Below the pieces are notes generated by a model. It searched no databases and was not told the origin of the DNA. It was given only the letters and a program-made list of their open reading frames with translations. Made by a program: the position numbers and the translations under genes. From positions 1-15,682 of the forward strand of contig JBBDRO010000110.1 of NCBI GenBank assembly GCA_040905425.1: a DNA stretch of 15,682 bases. The letters are read 5' to 3'. Below, piece after piece: positions 3,191 through 14,452 of this stretch (position 1 is the first letter of the stretch; every line of letters starts with the position of its first letter). The stretch is from Gemmatimonadota bacterium. Lineage in GTDB: Bacteria; Gemmatimonadota; Gemmatimonadetes; Longimicrobiales; RSA9.

Positions 3191-4969
3191 CTACCGCTGT
3201 CCGCCTCCGCCCGCGCCGGAGCCGGCACTCGCCGCCTTGCTGGCCGGCACCACGGCCAGCGGCACGTCACCGATGCCGCTGCGCTGCGGGTGCTGGCGGC
3301 CATTGGTCTGGCCGGGCACTTCGGCGCTCACGTAGGCGGCCACCTCGGAGAAGGTGACGATGCCGTTGCCGTCGGCGTCGGCGGCGCCGGCCAGGCCCTG
3401 CATGATGTGGTGCGTGAAGACGCCGTGGCCGCCGCCCCAGCGGGTGTCCTCGTGGCTCAGCTCGTTCATGGAGGCGGCCGTCAGCACCACGCGCCGCGAG
3501 GGCGTGAAGAGCTGCGCGAAGGAGCCGCCGATGGGGTTCTCCTCCTCCATGCCCCACTGCGCGCCGCCGCTGTGGCAGGCGTCGGCGAAGACCACCACGC
3601 GCTCGGCCCTGATCTGCCGGCGGAGCGCCGTCTGCACGTCCCACATGGGCACGGCCGTGGATGCCAGCGCATCCATGTTGGCGTCCGACGGCAGCAGGTA
3701 GAGGTTCTCCGGGCGGTTCGGATCGGGCGCGCCGTGGCCGGCGTAGTAGATCACCACCAGGTCATCCCAGTCCGCCTGCTGCAGGAAGACGAACATGGCC
3801 TCGCGGATCTGCTGCGCGGTGGCGTCGCGGTCCGTGAGCAGCAGGACCTTGTCTTCCTCGAACGGCCCGGCAGCCTCCGAGAGCAGGAACTCGTGCATGG
3901 CGCGCGCGTCCGCACCTGCGAAGCGCAGGTCCGGGATGTCGGGGGAGGCGTAGTCACCCACGCCGATGACCACCGCCCAGCGGTCGCCGATGTGCGGCGC
4001 GGCGGTCACCGTGGCCACCTGCCCGCCGGGGCCCGTGGCCACCACGTGTACGCTGTCCGTGGAGGAGGGCAGCGAGAGGTTGGCGCGGAAGCGGCGCGCG
4101 CTCTCCGGCAGCCCCAGCTCACGGCGCATGTCGGCGTCCACGGCGCCGATCTCGGCGCGTGTGCCGGCCACCTCCACCGTGCTCACATCCCCGTCCACGA
4201 TGCCCTCGATGACCACGTCGTTGGTCACCTCCTGGCCGCGGCTCCGCTTCACGATGCCGATGCCGCGCGAGGCCACGTCACCATCCATGGGCGGCAGCAC
4301 GTCGGTGCGGATGATGGCCAGGCGCGGCTCGCCGCTGCGGCCACCGCCGAGCGCCGCGCCCACGGAGCCCGGATCGGGACGCATGTAGTCCGTGGGACTC
4401 CAGTCGGCCTCCTCCCATGAGTTGGCCAGCGCGCCCACGAAGGACGTCTCGCGGATGAGCTTGCGGACGGCCTCGGCAATGGCGCCGGTGCGCGCCGCCT
4501 GCTCGGTGGCGTCGGCGCGGCGGCCCTCCGTACGCTGCGAGGAGAGCACGCCGCCCGCGTCCAGGCGGATGGCGCGCAGGTCCACGGACGCGGTGCCCGT
4601 ACGCAGCCGATTGTCGGCGGGGTTCGGCACCACCTCCCAGTCGGCGTTGCCGAGCACCAGCATGTGCGCGCCGAAGTCGCGGCCGAGCTGCACAGCGGCC
4701 TGCTCGTCACCGCCGAGCGCGGCCTCGACCAGCTCCCGCTGAGCCGCCGTGTGCGCCAGCGCCGGGTCCACCAGCGGGAAGCCCGCTTCCACGAAGAAGC
4801 GGCTGACTTCCTGGGCCGCCAGGTCCCCGCCACCGTTCTCGGTGACGAAGACCAGGGTGCGCGGCAGGTCGCTGGCAAAGGTGATCTGCTGGGCCGCCGC
4901 GGCGCCACCGGTGGCCACGAGGAGCAGGGCCGCGCCCAGCAGGCGCGCGAGGTGTCGTGTGCCGATCAT
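3191..4969 (-). CDS. Exported caspase-family (peptidase C14, metacaspase-like) protease with N-terminal CsgG/FlgT-like and Ig-like domains
   Basis: C14 motifs RWAVVIGVGDY, LRFAGADA, LLTDRDAT, YYAGHG (His codon 3734-3736), FADACHSG (Cys codon 3575-3577) and GHGVFT. Signal peptide ending GGAAAA|QQ. RBS GGGAGA overlaps the upstream stop codon. Confidence 0.9.
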   Translation of the reverse strand: MIGTRHLARLLGAALLLVATGGAAAAQQITFASDLPRTLVFVTENGGGDLAAQEVSRFFVEAGFPLVDPALAHTAAQRELVEAALGGDEQAAVQLGRDFGAHMLVLGNADWEVVPNPADNRLRTGTASVDLRAIRLDAGGVLSSQRTEGRRADATEQAARTGAIAEAVRKLIRETSFVGALANSWEEADWSPTDYMRPDPGSVGAALGGGRSGEPRLAIIRTDVLPPMDGDVASRGIGIVKRSRGQEVTNDVVIEGIVDGDVSTVEVAGTRAEIGAVDADMRRELGLPESARRFRANLSLPSSTDSVHVVATGPGGQVATVTAAPHIGDRWAVVIGVGDYASPDIPDLRFAGADARAMHEFLLSEAAGPFEEDKVLLLTDRDATAQQIREAMFVFLQQADWDDLVVIYYAGHGAPDPNRPENLYLLPSDANMDALASTAVPMWDVQTALRRQIRAERVVVFADACHSGGAQWGMEEENPIGGSFAQLFTPSRRVVLTAASMNELSHEDTRWGGGHGVFTHHIMQGLAGAADADGNGIVTFSEVAAYVSAEVPGQTNGRQHPQRSGIGDVPLAVVPASKAASAGSGAGGGGQR

Positions 4970-4979
4970 ATGGGTCTCC

Positions 4980-5642
4980 CTATCTGATCCGTTCGAGCGC
5001 CGCAGGGGCGTCGGGATGCTCCGGGAAGAGCTCTAGCGTCCGTTCGTACATCTCTGCGGCGCGCGCTGTGTTGCCGCGCCGCTCGTAGTCCAGGCCTCGC
5101 GAGAAGGCCAGCGTGGCGGCTGCCGGAATGTCCAGCTCCGAAGCCAGCACAGCCCGCTCCGGCAATTCCAGGTCCGTCAGGAAACGGTCGGCCAGGCTCT
5201 CCACCACGGCCAGGAAGTCATCGGGACGCGCCGTCTCCTTGAAGGAGCGGTAGACCTGCCCCGTCTCCACGTCGGCCAGGCGGATGTCCAGCCGCGCCAT
5301 GTTGCCCGTGAGGGTGATCTGGCCCGTCACCACGTACTGCGCGCCGGCCAGCTGCCCCACACGCAGCGCGGCGTCCTCGTCGAGCTGACCGGAGACCATG
5401 GCGCCCTGCGTCTCCATGAGCGCCTCGATGCGTTCGCGCTCCACCAGCTTCACCATGCCGCGCTCGGAGAACTCCGAGGTGATCATGGCGGGGAGCGCCT
5501 CCTGCAGCCCCGAGGCGTCCTGCCCGATGGCGAACGCGCTGAAGGGCAGGATGGCCACCGTGACCTGGGACGTCTGCGCGAATAGCACCTGTGGCGCCGC
5601 CATCAGCAGAGCCAGTGGCAACGCGACTCGAAGCGTCCTCAA
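4980..5642 (-). CDS. Exported CsgG/HfaB/TolB_N-fold protein with C-terminal TPR
   Basis: Motifs TVAILPF, KLVERERIEALM and GQLAGAQYVVTG...LDIRLADVETGQ typical of this fold. One C-terminal TPR-like repeat (FSRGLDYERRGNTARAAEMYERTLELFPEH). TTG start with a strong AAGGAGGT RBS. Signal peptide VLFA|Q with no lipobox Cys. Confidence 0.85.
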   Translation of the reverse strand: MRTLRVALPLALLMAAPQVLFAQTSQVTVAILPFSAFAIGQDASGLQEALPAMITSEFSERGMVKLVERERIEALMETQGAMVSGQLDEDAALRVGQLAGAQYVVTGQITLTGNMARLDIRLADVETGQVYRSFKETARPDDFLAVVESLADRFLTDLELPERAVLASELDIPAAATLAFSRGLDYERRGNTARAAEMYERTLELFPEHPDAPAALERIR

Positions 5643-5846
5643 GGGACACCTCCTTCTAGCTGTCGGCGAGGGTTCCGGGGGAGAGCCGGGCAGGACCGCT
5701 CGACATTACGGTTCCAGCAGTTACCCCAATATAGGACGCTTTGGCCACACGCGCGAGGGTCTTGTGGGGGGAGACCCCGGATGGCGCTGGTGCGCGGGGC
5801 GCAGCGCCGCGTCCCCGGCCCCGGCCGCGCGCCAGCGGCCCGCGCA

Positions 5847-5875
5847 TTGACGGGCCGAGGCTGGCAGGGCAGGTT
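5847..5875 (+). promoter_or_regulatory. Putative sigma-70 promoter for the selenoprotein-pfk operon
   Basis: TTGACG (5847-5852), 17-nt spacer, CAGGTT (5870-5875). Good -35 box, weak -10 box. Confidence 0.4.
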
Positions 5876-5909
5876 GGTCCCTACGAACCTGAGCCCGGAG
5901 AGGTGAACC

Positions 5910-6143
5910 ATGCACGTCAGCATTGAATACTGCGTAGTCTGAAACTACGAACCGCGCGCCTCCGGTCTGGAGGCGGAGATTCGTAAGTGCTTTCCGGACG
6001 CCGAGATCGAGCTGGTGAAGTCCTCGGGCGGCGTCTTCGAGGTGAGCGTGGACGGGGAGCTGGTCCATTCCAAGAAGGAGACCGGCCGACACACCTCCTG
6101 GGAGGAGATCCGACCCCTGCTGGAGGCCCGCCGCGGTGAGTGA
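5910..6143 (+). CDS. SelW/SelT/SelH (Rdx) family selenoprotein, 77 aa, CxxU motif (absent from the ORF track)
   Basis: Manual translation reading TGA 5940-5942 as Sec gives MHVSIEYCVVUNYEPRASGLEAEIRKCFPDAEIELVKSSGGVFEVSVDGELVHSKKETGRHTSWEEIRPLLEARRGE*. It has the Rdx hallmarks IEYCxxU and GGxFEVxVDGELVHSK. Strong RBS GGAGAGGTGA at 5897-5906. The stop overlaps the pfk start. Confidence 0.93.
5946..5985 (+). promoter_or_regulatory. Bacterial SECIS-like stem-loop
   Basis: Lower stem TACGAA (5946-5951) / TTCGTA (5980-5985). Upper stem CGCCTCC (5957-5963) / GGAGGCG (5969-5975). Apical loop GGTCT starts with G, 21 nt after the UGA, matching the general bacterial SECIS model. Confidence 0.8.
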
Positions 6144-7233
6144 GCAGCCCATCCGCCGCATCGCGCTGACCACCGGCGGCGGGGACGCGCCTGGCCTGAA
6201 CGCAGTTATCCGCGCCGCCGTGCTGGCGGCCGTGCGGCGCGGCTGGGAGGTGCACGGCATCACCCGCGGCTTCGGCGGCCTGCTGGGCCAGGGGTCGATC
6301 CTCCGCCTGGACACGGACAGCGTGCGCGGCATCACCCACCTGGGCGGCACCATCCTGGGCACCACCAACCGCGGCAATCCCTTCGAGTGGCCGGTGGTCA
6401 ACGGGGACGGCAGCAGCGGCACCGTGGACCGCTCCGACGAGGTGGTGAGCGCCTTCCGGCAGCTCGACCTGGACGCCCTCATAGCCATCGGCGGGGACGG
6501 CACGCTGGAAATTGCCCACCGCCTGGCGCGCAAGGGGCTGCCGGTGGTGGGCGTACCCAAGACCATCGACAATGACCTGGCCGTCACCCAGGTCACCTTC
6601 GGCTTCCACACCGCCGTGCAGACCGCCACGGACGCCCTGGACAAGCTGCACTCCACCGCGGAGAGCCACGAGCGCGTCATGGTGGTGGAGGTCATGGGGC
6701 GCAACACGGGCTGGATCGCGCTGCACGCCGGGCTGAGCGCCACGGCGGACGTCATTCTGCTGCCCGAGATCCCCTACAGCATGGACGCCGTGGTGGAGAA
6801 GATCCACGAGCGCTACCGCGTCGGGCGCAACTTCGCCATCGTGGTGGCGGCCGAGGGCGCCGTGCCGAAGGGCGGCCAGGTGAGCCTCGTGGAGGAGGCC
6901 GCGCCCGGGCAGGCCGCCCGCCTGGGCGGCGTGGCGGAGCGGTTGGCCGCGGAGATCGAGGAGCGCACCGGCCGCCAGACGCGCTCGCTCGTGCTGGGCC
7001 ACCTCCAGCGCGGCGGCACGCCTACCTCCTACGACCGCCTCATCGCGCTCCGCTTCGGCGCGGCCGCCGTACGCTGTGTGGAGGACCGCAGCTTCGGCAC
7101 CATGGTGGCGCTCGACCCGCCCGTCATCCGCGCCGTGCCCATCGAGGACGCCATCCGGCAGATCAAGAAGGTCCCGCTGGACGGGGATACGGTGGCCACC
7201 GCGCGCGACCTGGGCATCTGCCTGGGAGACTGA
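6136..7233 (+). CDS. pfkA: 6-phosphofructokinase, PfkA family, group III-type
   Basis: Motifs TGGGDAPGLN, GGTILGT, IGGDGT, PKTIDND, GFHTA, VEVMGR and GHLQRGG. GGDG together with PKTIDND fits group III enzymes, with ATP the likely donor. GTG start. Confidence 0.95.
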   Translation: MSEQPIRRIALTTGGGDAPGLNAVIRAAVLAAVRRGWEVHGITRGFGGLLGQGSILRLDTDSVRGITHLGGTILGTTNRGNPFEWPVVNGDGSSGTVDRSDEVVSAFRQLDLDALIAIGGDGTLEIAHRLARKGLPVVGVPKTIDNDLAVTQVTFGFHTAVQTATDALDKLHSTAESHERVMVVEVMGRNTGWIALHAGLSATADVILLPEIPYSMDAVVEKIHERYRVGRNFAIVVAAEGAVPKGGQVSLVEEAAPGQAARLGGVAERLAAEIEERTGRQTRSLVLGHLQRGGTPTSYDRLIALRFGAAAVRCVEDRSFGTMVALDPPVIRAVPIEDAIRQIKKVPLDGDTVATARDLGICLGD

Positions 7234-7313
7234 ACCCGGACTGAACGGGAGCGGAACCGGGCGGGACGCGGCGGCAAGGGAACGAGTGACGCGCCTGCAG
7301 GCACGCCGCCCGG

Positions 7314-7343
7314 TGGACCCCACGGCCCCTTGCCACGTATTCT
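7314..7343 (+). promoter_or_regulatory. Putative sigma-70 promoter for the S9 peptidase
   Basis: TGGACC (7314-7319), 18-nt spacer, TATTCT (7338-7343) in a local AT-rich patch. GGAGG RBS at 7374-7378. Confidence 0.35.
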
Positions 7344-7385
7344 ATAGCGTTCGCCCCCACAGCAGAGACCCACGGAGGACCGTTC

Positions 7386-9878
7386 ATGACACGCCTCATC
7401 CCGGGCGCCGCCGCGGCCGCCCACGCCGGCCGGCACACCCTGGTCACCCTCACCGGCCGGGCCGCCCTGGTCACGCTGGCCGCGCTCGCCGGCCTGGCCA
7501 CCCTGGCCGCGCCCGCCCTGGCCCAGCAGGCCGCCACCGCCGAGCCGCCCGCCGCCGAGGGGTCCGCCTTCGAGCTCAGCGTGGCCAACATCATGCGCGG
7601 CCCGGAGCACGTGGGCAGCGGCCCGGCCGGCGTGCAGTTCACCGCCGACAGCCGCTGGATCTACTTCCGCTGGACGCCCGGCGGTCAGGCCTGGGACGCC
7701 TCCTCGAGCAGCTGGCGCGTGCCCGCCGAGGGCGGCACACCGGAGGAGTTGAGTCCGGAGGCCGCCGACTCGGCCGCCATCCTGCTGGCCAACGGCCCGC
7801 TGGGCCCGGACGGCTACACCCGCGCCGTCTCGGTGGGCGGGGACCTCTACTTCGTGGACACCCGGGACGGCACGCACCGCCGCCTCACGGAGACACGCGC
7901 CTTCGAGGGCAGCCCCGTCTGGGGCCCGGAAGGGCGCACGCTCTACTACACCTCGGGTGACGACGTCTACGCCTTCGACGCCCGCGGCGGCACCATCCGC
8001 CAGGTGACGGACGTGCGCACGGGACCGGATCCAAGGTCGGCGGAGGAACGCGAGCCGGAAGGGCAGAAGGGCTTCCTCGTGCAGCAGCAGCGCGAGCTCT
8101 TCGAGCACATCCGCCGGTCCGTGGAACGGCGCGAGGAGCGCCAGGCCGAGGCCCGTGCCCGGGCAGAGGCCGAGCCCAAGCAGCCGACCTACCTGGAGCG
8201 CGACGAGCAACTCGGCAACCTGCAGATCGAGCCGCACGGCCGCTACGCGCTCATCTCCACGCGCCGCTCCGGCGGTGGGGGCCCAACCACCTCGGTGGAC
8301 ATGCCGCAGTGGATCACGGAGAGCGGCTACACGGAAACGCGCAGCATCCGCTCCAAGGTGGGGGACACGGGCGGCGGCGCGGACGGCCGCCTGGGTGTGC
8401 TGGACCTGGCCAGCGGCGCGGTGCGCTGGGTGGACGTGGCGGCGCACGTGCTCCCCGCGGGCGCCGAGGAGCGTGACGTGGGCGCCCGCTTCGCCGGCTG
8501 GAATGACGCCGGCACGCACGCCCTCATCAGCGTGAGCGCCGATGACTTCAAGGACGGCTGGCTGCTCACCATGGACGCGGGCACCGGCGCGCTCACCACC
8601 GTGGCGCACGAGAATCAGGAGGCCTGGGTGGCGGGGCCGTGCTCCATCACCGGCTGCAACGGCTGGCTGCCGGCGTCCGGCACGCTCTACTACACGAGTG
8701 AAAAGGACGGCTTCAACCACCTCTACACGGTGGGCGCCGACGGCACGGGCGAGCGGCAGCTCACCCGCGGCCCGTGGGAGATCCACCGCGTCTGGATCCC
8801 CGAGGGCGCCGACCGCTTCTACCTGCAGACCAACGAGGGCACCCCGCACCAGCAGCACGTGTGGACCATGGCCTTCGACGGCAGCAGGAAGACGCAGCTC
8901 ACGGACATGGTGGGCCAGCAGTCGGTGACCGTGTCCCCGGACCGGCGCCGGCTGGCCATCGTGCACTCCGAGGCCAACCGCCCCGAGGAGCTGTACGTGG
9001 CCGCGAACGAGGCACCGGCGCGCGTGACGCGCGTGACGACGTCGCCTACGGAAGCATGGCTTTCCTTCCCGTGGCAGAAGCCGGAGATCATCCAGTTCCG
9101 CGCCGGCGACGGCGTGATGGTGCCCGCCCGCATTTACCGGCCGGAGGACCTGAGCGCCCAGCCCAACGGCGCGGCGGTGCTCTTCGTGCACGGCGCCGGC
9201 TACCTGCAGAACGTGCACGAGTGGTGGTCCACCTACTACCGCGAGTACATGTTCCACCACCTGCTGGCGGCGCGTGGCTACATCGTGGTGGACGTGGACT
9301 ACCGTGGCTCACAGGGCTATGGCGCCGAGTGGCGCACGGCCATCTACCGGCACATGGGCGGGCGCGACCTGCAGGACTTCGTGGACGCCTCGCGCTGGCT
9401 GAACGCGGAGCACGGCATCGATCCCGAGCGCATCGGCATTTACGGCGGCAGCTACGGCGGCTTCATCACGCTCATGGCGCTCTTCAACGAGCCCGAGCAC
9501 TTCGGCGCCGGCGCCGCGCTCCGCTCCGTGACCGACTGGGCGCACTACAACCACGGCTACACGGGCCGTATCCTGAACCTGCCGCAGGATGACACCCTGT
9601 CCTACAAGCAGTCCTCGCCCATCTACTTTGCCGAGGGGCTGGAGGACCCGCTGCTCATCGCGCACGGCATGGTGGACAGCAACGTCCACTTCTCGGACGT
9701 GGTGCGCCTGGCGCAGCGCCTCATCGAGCTGGGCAAGGAGGACTGGGAGATGGCCGTCTACCCCGTGGAGGGGCACGGCTTCAGCGAGCCCGCCTCGTGG
9801 ACGGACGAGTACCGCCGCATCCTGGAACTCTTCGACAGGGCGCTGCACCCGGGTGGCCGGGCGGCCGACGGCGGCTGA
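7386..9878 (+). CDS. Exported S9 family serine peptidase (prolyl oligopeptidase / dipeptidyl peptidase IV-like)
   Basis: N-terminal propeller region and a C-terminal alpha/beta-hydrolase domain: FVHGAG, DYRGSQGYG, nucleophile GGSYGG, Asp in HGMVDSNV, His in EGHGF. Signal peptide ending PALA|QQ. Confidence 0.95.
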   Translation: MTRLIPGAAAAAHAGRHTLVTLTGRAALVTLAALAGLATLAAPALAQQAATAEPPAAEGSAFELSVANIMRGPEHVGSGPAGVQFTADSRWIYFRWTPGGQAWDASSSSWRVPAEGGTPEELSPEAADSAAILLANGPLGPDGYTRAVSVGGDLYFVDTRDGTHRRLTETRAFEGSPVWGPEGRTLYYTSGDDVYAFDARGGTIRQVTDVRTGPDPRSAEEREPEGQKGFLVQQQRELFEHIRRSVERREERQAEARARAEAEPKQPTYLERDEQLGNLQIEPHGRYALISTRRSGGGGPTTSVDMPQWITESGYTETRSIRSKVGDTGGGADGRLGVLDLASGAVRWVDVAAHVLPAGAEERDVGARFAGWNDAGTHALISVSADDFKDGWLLTMDAGTGALTTVAHENQEAWVAGPCSITGCNGWLPASGTLYYTSEKDGFNHLYTVGADGTGERQLTRGPWEIHRVWIPEGADRFYLQTNEGTPHQQHVWTMAFDGSRKTQLTDMVGQQSVTVSPDRRRLAIVHSEANRPEELYVAANEAPARVTRVTTSPTEAWLSFPWQKPEIIQFRAGDGVMVPARIYRPEDLSAQPNGAAVLFVHGAGYLQNVHEWWSTYYREYMFHHLLAARGYIVVDVDYRGSQGYGAEWRTAIYRHMGGRDLQDFVDASRWLNAEHGIDPERIGIYGGSYGGFITLMALFNEPEHFGAGAALRSVTDWAHYNHGYTGRILNLPQDDTLSYKQSSPIYFAEGLEDPLLIAHGMVDSNVHFSDVVRLAQRLIELGKEDWEMAVYPVEGHGFSEPASWTDEYRRILELFDRALHPGGRAADGG
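7425..7505 (+). repeat. Three degenerate 27-bp tandem repeats in the signal-peptide coding region
   Basis: gccggccggcacaccctggtcaccctc / accggccgggccgccctggtcacgctg / gccgcgctcgccggcctggccaccctg, encoding AGRHTLVTL, TGRAALVTL and AALAGLATL. Confidence 0.55.
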
Positions 9879-9971: not shown

Positions 9972-10628
9972 CTACTCCGTGCCGCGGCTCCGCATGAGGG
10001 CCACGTGCCGCTTGCTCTCCCCCGTGAGCACCATGTCGGCGTAGCCGTTGTCCGGGTTCCGGCCGCGCTTCAGCAGGCCGTCCACCGTGCCGGGGCCGCG
10101 GTTGTACGCGGTGAGCGCCAGGCGCTCGTCACCCTGGTACTTGTCCATCAGGTAGCGCAGGTACTTGAAGCCCACCTGCAGGTTGGTCTTGGGCTCGAAG
10201 AGCGCGCTCCGCGTGGTGCCGGGCACCAGCCAGCGGGCGGTGGACGGCAGCAGCTGTGTGAGCCCCACGGCGCCGGCGTAGGAGACCGCCGTGCGGCGGA
10301 AGCTGGACTCCGCGCGCACCAGCCCGAAGGCCACGTGCGGTTCGATGTCCTCGGCCACGGCCGCGTCGTGCACCTGGAAGGCCAGGTCCAGCGGAATCTG
10401 GAAGGTGGCGGCATACTCCAGCGCCAGGCCCTGCCGCTGACGCTCCAGCACGCGCTCGCTCCAGAAGCGCGAGACGGTGTCCTCGGAGTAGTCCACGGTG
10501 TCCCCGGCGGGCGGGGCGCTGACGGACATGAAGGCCGCCGCGGGCGCGATGAGCGCCGTTCCTATGATCAACCGCGAAGCCGGACCACGGCGCGCGCGCA
10601 ACCAGTCGCGCGGGTCTCGTATCGGCAT
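9972..10628 (-). CDS. Lytic transglycosylase (SLT domain) protein
   Basis: SLT motifs RAESSF (catalytic Glu), GAVGLTQL, G..YL..L and ALTAYNRGPG. N-terminal hydrophobic segment. Start placed at the ATG at 10628, which has TGGAG 6 nt upstream; the ORF track start is 10700. Confidence 0.9.
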   Translation of the reverse strand: MPIRDPRDWLRARRGPASRLIIGTALIAPAAAFMSVSAPPAGDTVDYSEDTVSRFWSERVLERQRQGLALEYAATFQIPLDLAFQVHDAAVAEDIEPHVAFGLVRAESSFRRTAVSYAGAVGLTQLLPSTARWLVPGTTRSALFEPKTNLQVGFKYLRYLMDKYQGDERLALTAYNRGPGTVDGLLKRGRNPDNGYADMVLTGESKRHVALMRSRGTE

Positions 10629-10906: not shown

Positions 10907-13900
10907 ATGAGCGACGAAGCCATGCCTGCCCGCCTACAGCGGGAACCCCGCCGTTTTCCGCATCGGCTAGCCCTGCTGCCCCTGCTGGGCCTGTGCGTGG
11001 CGGTGGCCGCCTGTGATCGGGCCACGGCGCCCCCCCAGGCCGGCAGCCTCACCATCGTGAGTGCCAACGGCCCCGAAGGCGCCGTGGGAGAGACGGTGCC
11101 GCTTTCCGTGCGGGTGGCGGATGATGCCGGCAACCCGCTCGGTTCGTTCACCGTGGAATGGCGGGTCACGGCGGGTGGCGGCACGCTCGCAGCTTCCTCC
11201 ACGCAGACCGGTGCGGACGGCGTGGCAAGGGTGAACTGGGCGCTCGGGACCAGCCCTGGCACGAACCGGGCTACCGGTACTGCGAGTGGGGCCAGCCCGG
11301 TCACGTTCACCGTGCAGGCAGTCGCGGGGCCGCCCGTCAGCCTTGAGGTTCACGCCGGTAGTGGGCAGAGCGTCGCGGTCGGCACCGCCGTACCGACCGC
11401 ACCGGCCCTGCGCGTGGAGGACAGATTCGGCAATCCCGTTGCCGGCGTCAGCGTCACCTGTACGGTGGTCGGCGCGGGCGGCACGCTGGCGTCAGGCACC
11501 GCCACCACGAACGCGGCCGGCGTGGCCACCATGGGAAGCTGGCAGATCGGCACGGCCCTCGGCACCCACCAGCTGAGTTGCACCGCTCCGGGGATCGCGG
11601 CCGTGCTGGTGACGGCCACAGGCGTGCCCGGTCCGCCCGCCAGCATCACGGTACAGACCGGTAACCAGCAGAGCGCCACGGTGGGGACGGCCGTGCCCGT
11701 CGCCCCCTCAGTGCTGGTGCGGGACGCGCACGGCAACCCGGCCGCGGGCGGCGTGGTTACGTTCTCGGTGACCGAGGGGGCGGGCACCCTGACGGGCGCC
11801 ACGGCCACGGCAAACGCCTCCGGCGTGGCCACGCTGGGCGCGTGGACCCTCGGGGTCGTGGCGGGCCCGAATACGCTTCGGGTGAGCGCCGGCTCCGCGC
11901 CCCCTGTGAACATCACGGCCGTGGGATCCCCGGGCGCTCCCGCCAGCGCGACCATCGCCGCCGGCGACGCCCAGGAGGCCCCGGCCACTTCCGCTGTGCC
12001 GGTCGCGCCCAGCGTGCTGGTGGCGGACCAGTATGGCAACGGCGTGCCAGGCGTAGCTGTGGCTTTCGCGGTGGCCACCGGCGGCGGCACCGTCACGGGA
12101 GCCAACGCCACCACCGGCGCGGATGGTCGAGCAACCGTGGGCAGTTGGATTCTCGGCGCCGGCCTGGGCGCCAATACGCTCACCGCCACGGCGGCGGGCA
12201 TGGCGCCGCTCACGTTCACGGCCACGGCGCGTTCCGGACCGCCGGCGAGCATCGCTATCCACGCCGGCAACAATCAGACGGCAACCGTTGGCACGGCTGT
12301 GCCCTCGGCACCGGCCGTCCTCATTCGAGACGCAGCCGGCAACCCCGTTCCGGGAGCGGTGGTGACATTTTCCATCACGGCCGGCGGGGGTAGCCTGACG
12401 GGTGCGAACGCCGCTACCGACGCGGCCGGCGTGGCCACCCTCGGGAGTTGGGTCCTGGGCTTCACGGCGGGCGCCAACGCGCTGTCGGCCGCGGTTGCGG
12501 GTGTATCTCCGGTGACCATGAGCGCCACCGGCATCGCGGGCCCGGCGGCCAGCATGGCCGCGAGCGCGGGCAACAATCAGTCGGCTCCGGCGGGCAGTAC
12601 GTTGCCGATCGCGCCCGCGGTGATCGTTACTGACGCGTACGGCAATCCCGTGGCGGGTGTAGCGGTGACGTTTGCCGTGGCCAGCGGCGGGGGCACCATC
12701 ACCGGTGCCAATGCCACGACCAACGGCAACGGGGTGGCCGCCGCCGGTGCATGGCAGCTGGGCGCCGCCCTGGGCATGAATTCGGCTACCGCGGCGGCCA
12801 CCGGGCTGCCGACCGTCACGTTCCAGGCCGAGGGGCTTACCTCCTCCACCCTGAACCTGTCGGTGCAGGGTGTGCACCTGAACCAGGGCAACCAGACTGC
12901 GGGGGGCACCGTGGGGGGGATCGCCAACCGCGCGGGATTGCTGCGCGTGATGGTGCAGGCCAACGAGGCAAACGCCGCCAGCCCCGCGGTGCGCGTGCGC
13001 CTCTACCAGGGCGCGACCCTGCTGCGGGAGGAGACCCTGGCCGCTCCCGCAGCCGGCGTGCCCACCACGCCGAATCTGAACAATCTGAACGGCACCTGGA
13101 ATCTTGCGCTGAGCGCGGGGGAGGTAGTGGCGGGTCTGGCCGTGGAGGTCCTGGTGGACCCGGGCAATACCGTGGCCGAGAGCAGCGAGAGTGACAACGT
13201 GTTCCCGCCGGGCGGCGGTTCCGCATCCCTCGATGTGCAAGCGATCCCCGATCTGAACGTGGTGTTCATCCCGGTGGAAGCCACCGTACACGGGCTGACG
13301 GGCAACGTCAACGCCGCCAACATGGACAGCTTCCTGGACGAGACGTATCAGCGACTGCCCACCAGCTCCATCTCACCGACGCTGCACGCAGTGTTCACAA
13401 GTAGTCAGGATCTTGCGTCGCGAGAGGGTTGGTTGATCCTTGTGCTAGACATCCTAGGATTGCGGACGGCAGAAGGCGCCATAAACCAGTACTACCACGG
13501 CATAGTTCCGGCCTTCCAGGGTATGGCTCAGGGCGGCATCGCCTCCCTTGCCCACAGCCCCGCGGACCCCGTCCGTGTGGCCCTTTCGCACGACCTGTTC
13601 CCGTCCGCCCCCGGCACCGTGGCGCACGAGTTGGGGCACAATATGGGCCGTGCCCATGCGCCCTGCGGTAGTCCCGGCGGCCCGGACGCGGGCTATCCCC
13701 ATAGCGACGCGCGTATCGGGCCGCCGGGCTATGACGTGACGAGCGGCACGCTGATGAGCTCGGATGTCCTGCGCGATTACATGAGCTACTGCAACCCCAC
13801 GTGGACGAGCGATTACACGTTCGGCGCGATCGTGAACTGGCGCCGGGGTGACCCGCTCGCTAGTCCCGCGGAGGGGTACGCCGCCATGGCCGCGCCCACG

Positions 13901-14452
13901 ACCGGTGTGCTGGTCTGGGGCCGGATGAATTCCACGGACGCCACCTTGAATCCGGCCTTCGCGTTGAGGGCTCCGCCCGCCCTGCCCGATCGGGCGGGCC
14001 CCGACGTGCTGGTGGCCACCGACGGCAGCGGGGACGAAGTCTTCCGCTTCTCGTTCACGGCCGTCCCCGTGGCGGACGCGGCCGATCCGGAGGAGCGCCA
14101 TTTTGCCTTCCTCGTCCCGCTCGAGGGGTCCGAGATCGAGCGGCTTCATACCATCGAGCTGCGCACGGCGCGGCACACGGCCACGCAGGTCGCCTCCACC
14201 ATGGCGGCGGCACCGACGCTGGCCGGGGCGGAAGCGGATCTACGGCTGGAACCGAGGCCCGGAGAGCGCATGCGGCTGCGCTGGGACGCAGGCCGCTTTC
14301 CGATGGCAATGGTGCGTGACGCGGCCACCGGGCAAGTCCTCTCCTTTGCCCGTGGGGGTGACGCCCAGCTGGCCACTGGCGGCCGTGGCGCGGATGGCAT
14401 CCAAATCCTGCTATCGGACGGCGTTCGCACGCGGGCGGTGAGGCATGAGTAA
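10907..14452 (+). CDS. Large lipoprotein: six Big_1-like Ig repeats, metzincin (M66-like) zinc metallopeptidase domain and a C-terminal beta domain
   Basis: Lipobox VAVAA|C. Ig repeats with D..GNPV.G..V.F and G.A....W.LG motifs. Zinc motif HELGHNMGRAH (13625-13657) followed by APCG, and Met-turn DYMSYC. The start could be the ATG at 10922. Confidence 0.88.
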   Translation: MSDEAMPARLQREPRRFPHRLALLPLLGLCVAVAACDRATAPPQAGSLTIVSANGPEGAVGETVPLSVRVADDAGNPLGSFTVEWRVTAGGGTLAASSTQTGADGVARVNWALGTSPGTNRATGTASGASPVTFTVQAVAGPPVSLEVHAGSGQSVAVGTAVPTAPALRVEDRFGNPVAGVSVTCTVVGAGGTLASGTATTNAAGVATMGSWQIGTALGTHQLSCTAPGIAAVLVTATGVPGPPASITVQTGNQQSATVGTAVPVAPSVLVRDAHGNPAAGGVVTFSVTEGAGTLTGATATANASGVATLGAWTLGVVAGPNTLRVSAGSAPPVNITAVGSPGAPASATIAAGDAQEAPATSAVPVAPSVLVADQYGNGVPGVAVAFAVATGGGTVTGANATTGADGRATVGSWILGAGLGANTLTATAAGMAPLTFTATARSGPPASIAIHAGNNQTATVGTAVPSAPAVLIRDAAGNPVPGAVVTFSITAGGGSLTGANAATDAAGVATLGSWVLGFTAGANALSAAVAGVSPVTMSATGIAGPAASMAASAGNNQSAPAGSTLPIAPAVIVTDAYGNPVAGVAVTFAVASGGGTITGANATTNGNGVAAAGAWQLGAALGMNSATAAATGLPTVTFQAEGLTSSTLNLSVQGVHLNQGNQTAGGTVGGIANRAGLLRVMVQANEANAASPAVRVRLYQGATLLREETLAAPAAGVPTTPNLNNLNGTWNLALSAGEVVAGLAVEVLVDPGNTVAESSESDNVFPPGGGSASLDVQAIPDLNVVFIPVEATVHGLTGNVNAANMDSFLDETYQRLPTSSISPTLHAVFTSSQDLASREGWLILVLDILGLRTAEGAINQYYHGIVPAFQGMAQGGIASLAHSPADPVRVALSHDLFPSAPGTVAHELGHNMGRAHAPCGSPGGPDAGYPHSDARIGPPGYDVTSGTLMSSDVLRDYMSYCNPTWTSDYTFGAIVNWRRGDPLASPAEGYAAMAAPTTGVLVWGRMNSTDATLNPAFALRAPPALPDRAGPDVLVATDGSGDEVFRFSFTAVPVADAADPEERHFAFLVPLEGSEIERLHTIELRTARHTATQVASTMAAAPTLAGAEADLRLEPRPGERMRLRWDAGRFPMAMVRDAATGQVLSFARGGDAQLATGGRGADGIQILLSDGVRTRAVRHE
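11033..12844 (+). repeat. Six tandem Ig-like domain repeats with 303-bp period
   Basis: Repeats 2-6 begin at 11330, 11633, 11936, 12239 and 12542, exactly 303 bp (101 aa) apart. Repeat 1 is slightly shorter and more divergent, and its start is approximate. Confidence 0.9.

Follow-up and report, generated by a model that had tools for sequence, protein, structure and literature searches.

SelW-like proteins belong to the described selenoproteins of bacteria. Those of the Pfam family PF10262, termed SELENOW-like, carry a CxxU motif with one selenocysteine (Sec) and appear as a listed prokaryotic selenoprotein family in the available passages of a review (PMC13188914); 10 SelW-like genes are given in the accessible part of another paper (PMC1794560). 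An example is selW of Campylobacter jejuni (CJnc60), an unannotated 80-aa ORF whose UGA is read through, with support from ribosome profiling and from mass-spectrometric peptides beyond the UGA (bioRxiv 10.1101/2022.11.09.515450, in excerpt). SelW genes have been described as 'completely missed' by annotation (PMC4607533, in excerpt). BSepDB screened the GTDB genomes, and its Table S1 includes genomes of Gemmatimonadota (PMC13326102, in excerpt); selW genes of this phylum may already be catalogued there. The protein family, the CxxU motif, the model of the bacterial SECIS element and the annotation gap have all been described before, and the only part of the present analysis that might be new is a conserved pairing of selW with the phosphofructokinase gene pfk. 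In the literature covered, which comprised titles, the beginnings of abstracts and few subscription papers, no paper on a selW-pfk link or on selenoproteins of Gemmatimonadota was found, and a term search of PMC12013277 and PMC5029168 returned neither 'Gemmatimonad' nor 'SelW'.

The gene considered here lies in a stretch of 15,682 nucleotides, in the following called the window, from a Gemmatimonadota bacterium with a genome of 4.1 Mb (70% G+C, 97% complete); its nearest relatives among named genomes carry the labels Longimicrobiales and Gemmatimonadales. It occupies positions 5910..6143 of the forward strand, which also carries all other features described below unless marked otherwise, and is preceded by a ribosome binding site, GGAGAGGTGA, at 5897..5906. 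From the ATG at 5910 the frame crosses a TGA at 5940-5942 and then stays open up to the stop TGA at 6141-6143. With the first TGA read as Sec (U), the product is MHVSIEYCVVUNYEPRA...GGVFEVSVDGELVHSKK..., a protein of 77 aa whose CxxU motif at 5931..5942 consists of Cys8 (TGC, 5931-5933), two valines and Sec11 and is conserved in orthologs, as are the frame and the stop position. The initial annotation had picked out the ribosome binding site, the ATG and the in-frame read-through IEYCVV-TGA-NYEPRA and had pointed out that the gene is overlooked by the ORF track. Both observations are borne out by the sequence, and the gene is missing from the list of ORFs of at least 60 aa. No alternative letter for the codon 5940-5942 is listed in the contigs of four out of four DNA runs, all of which come from one study and one of which is possibly the source. 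Judging from the comparisons described below, the gene is real and conserved, and its UGA is very likely decoded as Sec.

The read-through protein is similar to bacterial SELENOW-like selenoproteins in its family HMMs, in the position of the CxxU at the end of the first strand, in its length (about 75-80 aa) and in the arrangement of a UGA followed by a consensus SECIS. The assignment to the Rdx/SelW family that had been made from the letters agrees with scores of 74.9 bits for Pfam Rdx PF10262 (cut-off 22.6), 66.9 bits for TIGR02174 CXXU_selWTH (cut-off 34.2) and 96.8 bits for NF041051 (SelTWH_Campy; cut-off 88). Membership of NF041051 is shared with C. jejuni selW, from which the present gene differs in belonging to another phylum and in being a prediction from sequence. 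The stretch C8-V-V-U11 near the N-terminus is the CxxC/CxxU motif of the Rdx, or SelT-SelW-SelH, family, and both C8 and position 11 are invariant across 24 sequences. In a sequence search of solved structures eight chains matched at E<=0.1, every one of the Rdx type, the best relatives being the Rdx proteins 2fa8, 2ljk and 3dex and the SelW protein 2npb; by these sequence matches, the present protein may have the thioredoxin-like fold of the family. Cys-type bacterial Rdx proteins (2fa8 Atu0228, 3dex SAV_2001, 2obk, 2p0g), MIEN1 (2ljk) and mouse SelW (2npb) resemble the present protein with E values from 5e-9 to 5e-3, in alignments that cover residues 3 to 56-70 and include the CxxC/U and the GGxFEV motifs. 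U11 stands opposite the second Cys of the CxxC in the three alignments shown, in line with the correspondence of U and Cys expected among homologs; the solved Cys-type proteins differ from the present one in this CxxC and in a longer C-terminus. A redox activity of the present protein is suggested by such relatives, among them MIEN1 with a redox potential of -225 mV (PMC3527542, in excerpt). As a member of the Rdx (SelW/T/H) family, the product is predicted to work in the cytoplasm as a small thiol/disulfide oxidoreductase whose active site is Cys-x-x-Sec.

A word-limited search of 5.8 billion proteins returned only 7 proteins among 15 candidates, a small number of the kind to be expected of gene callers that end the frame at the UGA. 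Five close relatives in the database (P0002-P0006) read CVVC and are either true Cys forms or Sec proteins with U shown as C; given these five, Sec may be replaceable in the SelW-like protein. Another relative, P0007, shows W in place of Sec, probably because a gene caller mistranslated the TGA.

The UGA is conserved among relatives. By protein search and HMM search, a selW ortholog could be found in 43 of 73 genomes of the host's taxonomic family; 42 of the 43 matches span a TGA and the remaining one begins behind the site. Codon-level reading of the best 30 of these 43 family loci gave TGA in 30/30 and Cys8 in 30/30. Further loci of the phylum have TGA in 28/28 and in 20/20, which makes 78/78 together with the family loci, all of them best-scoring or hand-picked loci and not a random sample. 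Out of 80 named loci, which overlap partly with the other phylum loci read, 73 could be parsed, and TGA is present in 73/73. Behind the TGA, the 30 family loci contain 58 codons with zero stops, and the entropy by codon position is 0.58/0.44/1.01, the third position being the most variable. By this comparison, purifying selection acts on the codons behind the TGA. An Rdx match was obtained in 185 out of 301 genomes taken from the phylum (187 matches overall), and among the 150 of the 187 matches that were listed, 148 contain one TGA and 2 contain none. Two CxxC genes of the phylum (L051, 40% identical, and L052) are Cys-type Rdx genes that have no hairpin and do not lie beside pfk. One genome (G315) encodes both a Sec-type gene beside pfk (L203) and, separately, the CxxC-type gene L052.

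A bacterial SECIS element follows the UGA in a somewhat simpler form than the two-stem hairpin with a G-initiated loop 21 nt after the TGA that the initial annotation had described. The segment 5940-5990 does fold into a two-part hairpin (-21.4 kcal/mol, z -2.96, 0/200 shuffles equally stable), which is less exceptional with wider or narrower fold boundaries (z -0.84 to -2.68). The lower stem, however, does not appear when 30 family sequences are folded to a consensus, and a two-stem SECIS was rejected. Only the upper 7 pairs are kept, 5958-5964 with 5968-5974, or columns 19-25 with 29-35 when numbered from the U of the UGA, so that the element at 5958..5974 consists of the stem GCCUCCG / UGGAGGC and the loop GUC. 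Likewise, the distance of 21 nt from the TGA does hold for G5964, yet this base closes the stem and is variable (A in 40/58 and G in 18/58 sequences, paired to U), and the invariant loop G is 5965, at 22 nt.

Covariation across orthologs, which would be expected of such an element, was found. In 58 sequences, 96.3% of 406 stem cells are paired, compared with 89.5% after shuffling and 27-48% when the register is slid, and there are 23 two-sided changes, a number reached in 0/500 shuffles. Twenty of the 23 are changes from U-A to G-C that also alter two amino acids (Ser-x-Leu-Glu to Ala-x-Leu-Ala); this phylum-wide change may represent one or few events, kin not being independent. Inside the family the covariation is slight (2 two-sided cells in 30 sequences, 8/500 shuffles). 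In 58/58 sequences AGG, AGT or GGT serves as the loop codon, with three amino acids specified around one invariant G, and by a rough count in long ORFs of this genome these codons are rare, at about 4%, 5% and 11% of those for Arg, Ser and Gly, respectively. Ser +7 is encoded by TCC in 30/30 family loci, and Ser +43 by three different codons. Read from these alignments, the rare codons and the amino-acid changes are imposed by the SECIS RNA.

According to excerpts of the review cited above, the bacterial SECIS consensus is N1-G-[G/U]-N-N2 at 16-37 nt from the UGA, with the G within the first two loop positions, an upper stem of 4-16 bp, a loop of 3-9 nt and an energy of at most -7.5 kcal/mol (PMC13188914). 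The present hairpin lies within these ranges with 6-7 pairs, a loop G at +22 and -10.3 kcal/mol. Of the 856 motif-bearing TGAs in the host genome with its 70% G+C, 213 satisfy a loose rule of this kind, so that the hairpin alone is weak evidence, and its support comes from conservation and covariation; a genome-wide selenoproteome deduced from motif and hairpin was dropped as too unspecific. The strict family pattern occurs at 21 sites of the host genome, with 6/6 pairs only at selW. An Rfam search of 5600-6300 at E<=10 yielded four chance matches under the gathering score and no SECIS model. Both the register of the hairpin and its loop G recur in SelW-like loci labelled Planctomycetota, Acidobacteriota, Desulfobacterota and others (L092-L159), and the loop G is present in 72 of the 73 parsed named loci.

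The Sec machinery that the initial annotation had presumed for this organism is encoded in the host genome, where selA, selB, selD and the gene for tRNA-Sec (selC) were all found above cut-offs. The genome also encodes a tRNA-Trp(CCA) distinct from the tRNA-Sec(UCA), which is itself well formed. Across the phylum, selA was matched in 247 of 301 genomes (242 above cut-off). Rdx and selA occur together in 183 genomes, selA only in 64, neither in 52 and Rdx only in 2, so that selA accompanies Rdx in 183/185 cases; kin are not independent, and these counts, which take in one unpublished genome (G224) and two genomes scored selA-positive on weak matches only (G195 and G249, selB being present in both and tRNA-Sec in G249), carry no statistic. 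One of the two Rdx-only genomes (G246) has tRNA-Sec and selB, and its selA is therefore probably absent from the assembly and not from the genome. In the other (G252), the Rdx gene is of the CxxC type, and searches for selA, tRNA-Sec and a full selB gave nothing.

Several further features of the host genome came to light in these searches. The selD gene on the reverse strand (C68:20067-20990, locus L018) has its own in-frame TGA in a GAGUACK motif, and its hairpin is off the selW register. A second likely selenoprotein, reading ...RGHWUPYCQRQ..., has its TGA at 74134 of contig C32 on the forward strand, followed after 20 nt by a hairpin with the loop AGGTG. On contig C94, 19 tRNA genes are arrayed in 2.3 kb (6070-8323), with one more at 10342. 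Extra calls of a tRNA-Cys (C17) and a tRNA-Ala (C43) were discarded for their poor folds.

The conserved UGA, the covarying hairpin and the machinery support the decoding of this TGA as Sec that had been proposed from the letters. The best explanation, in which we place high confidence, is that SelB and the hairpin deliver Sec to the UGA and that the product is a small CxxU oxidoreductase of the cytoplasm, whose gene would be co-transcribed with pfk. Following the established bacterial pathway, SelD would make selenophosphate, SelA would convert Ser-tRNA-Sec to Sec-tRNA-Sec, and SelB bound to the loop G of the hairpin would bring Sec to the UGA. By analogy with the family, Cys8 and Sec11 would then cycle between a reduced and a selenenyl-sulfide state, and the thiols of target proteins would be reduced or isomerised in the process. 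One housekeeping promoter likely drives a joint selW-pfk transcript with selW as its first cistron; the protein would thus be made together with glycolytic enzyme and maintain the redox state in general, not act as a dedicated subunit of phosphofructokinase (PFK).

The pfk gene (6136..7233) encodes a 6-phosphofructokinase of 365 aa of the PFK_mixed subfamily with GGDG and PKTIDND motifs, the only PFK found in the host genome; we take the GGDG motif to suggest ATP dependence. Its GTG start overlaps the selW stop, and its likely ribosome binding site, GGAGG at 6122..6126, lies within the end of selW, 9 nt before the GTG. A putative sigma-70-type promoter (TTGACG, 17 nt, CAGGTT) is situated at 5847..5875 and is likely common to selW and pfk. 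The motif TTGAC occurs in the 200 nt that precede selW in 20/30 family loci and in 4/28 loci of other families (24/58 overall), and upstream of pfk in 19/25 family genomes without selW, compared with 5% of random 200-nt windows of the genome; a scan of 5600-7450 for strict sigma-70 and terminator consensus sequences gave no match. No selW remnant was detected by tblastn (E<=10) upstream of pfk in 30 loci without selW. Because TTGAC precedes selW, and pfk in genomes that have no selW, the gene is likely inserted between pfk and the promoter of pfk, from where it can be lost cleanly. A link of selW loss to a second PFK was considered and rejected, at least 2 matches being present in 37/42 selW-bearing and in 23/28 selW-less pfk-bearing genomes.

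Upstream and divergent from the pair, a CsgG/TolB-N-like protein with a TPR tail and a caspase-domain protein are encoded at 3191-5642 of the reverse strand; the CsgG/TolB-N-like gene lies upstream of selW in 7/60 loci and upstream of pfk in 3 loci without selW. Behind pfk, a gene of the S9 prolyl oligopeptidase family (7386-9878) is there in only some relatives. Further downstream, an ORF of 1181 aa (10907-14452) codes for a predicted lipoprotein-like product with about six repeated Ig-like units; a HELGH stretch in it presumably resembles the zinc-metalloprotease motif.

The pairing with pfk sets this locus apart from the operons in the review cited above. In the available text of section 9 of PMC13188914, bacterial SELENOW-like genes are paired with Prx and not with phosphofructokinase, and the lineage differs too. 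A far-reaching reading would make the hidden selenoprotein the lead cistron of a pfk operon across much of Gemmatimonadota. Glycolytic flux would be tied to selenium and to the redox state by one of two routes, an action on PFK or a gating of pfk translation through UGA read-through. This reading as a whole is unlikely.

A selenoprotein acting specifically on the adjacent PFK, as a redox switch or a protector of glycolysis, is rather improbable. It would account for the steadiness of the pair, pfk lying directly after selW in 43/43 family genomes (30 fetched loci and 13 by coordinates) and, in three other families, in 24/24 (f4), 7/8 (f5) and 2/2 (f8) cases among best-scoring or hand-picked, not random, loci, while the genes flanking the pair differ among loci; a loose parallel is the reported co-precipitation of mouse SelW with the glycolytic enzyme PKM2 (PMC10943047, in excerpt). 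On the other hand, the link is missing in all 14 loci of four families (f2 0/6, f6 0/1, f7 0/5, f9 0/2), and among the named loci pfk is adjacent in 24/41 labelled Gemmatimonadota and in 0/32 labelled otherwise. Family genomes without selW retain pfk in 28/30 cases. A target cysteine that is conserved in the linked PFKs and tied to the presence of selW was looked for and not found: the 55 linked PFKs share no invariant Cys, and three full-length ones have no Cys at all. The commonest, at position 220, occurs in 43/52 linked PFKs, also in 21/25 PFKs of genomes without selW, and is replaced by Val in the present window.

The second route, in which the Sec codon serves as a selenium sensor and scarce Sec-tRNA causes a stop at codon 11 that lowers pfk expression by loss of translational coupling or by polarity, is very improbable. 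The overlap of the pfk start with the selW stop, a distance of few bases in many other loci, and the promoter-like motif upstream of selW would suit such a device; pfk, however, has its own GGAGG site in the window, in other loci as much as about 110 nt separate the selW stop from the beginning of the pfk match, and selW has been lost without trace at the same position in many relatives. Scarcely credible, finally, is a TGA that is a real stop, a sequencing error, a pseudogene lesion or a Trp or Cys codon under another code: TGA is the commonest stop in the host genome (about 68% of long ORFs) and P0007 shows W at the site, but the conservation in all 78 loci, the selection behind the codon and the uniform letters in the four runs oppose a stop or an error, the separate tRNA-Sec(UCA) and tRNA-Trp(CCA) oppose another code, and a genome-wide reassignment is contradicted by the TGA that terminates selW itself.

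Delivery of Sec by SelB and the hairpin to a general redox protein, as favoured above, leaves the mechanism of Sec insertion unchanged and defines no new family. The analysis mends an annotation gap for a gene present in 185/301 genomes of the phylum, and the 58 aligned hairpins provide a clean covarying example of a minimal bacterial SECIS. The selW-pfk pairing offers a testable lead on the role of bacterial SelW, which is left open in the available passages of PMC13188914. If the tie of glycolysis to selenium and redox state were true, a bacterial SelW would for the first time have a physiological partner, and a Sec codon would act as a metabolic sensor.
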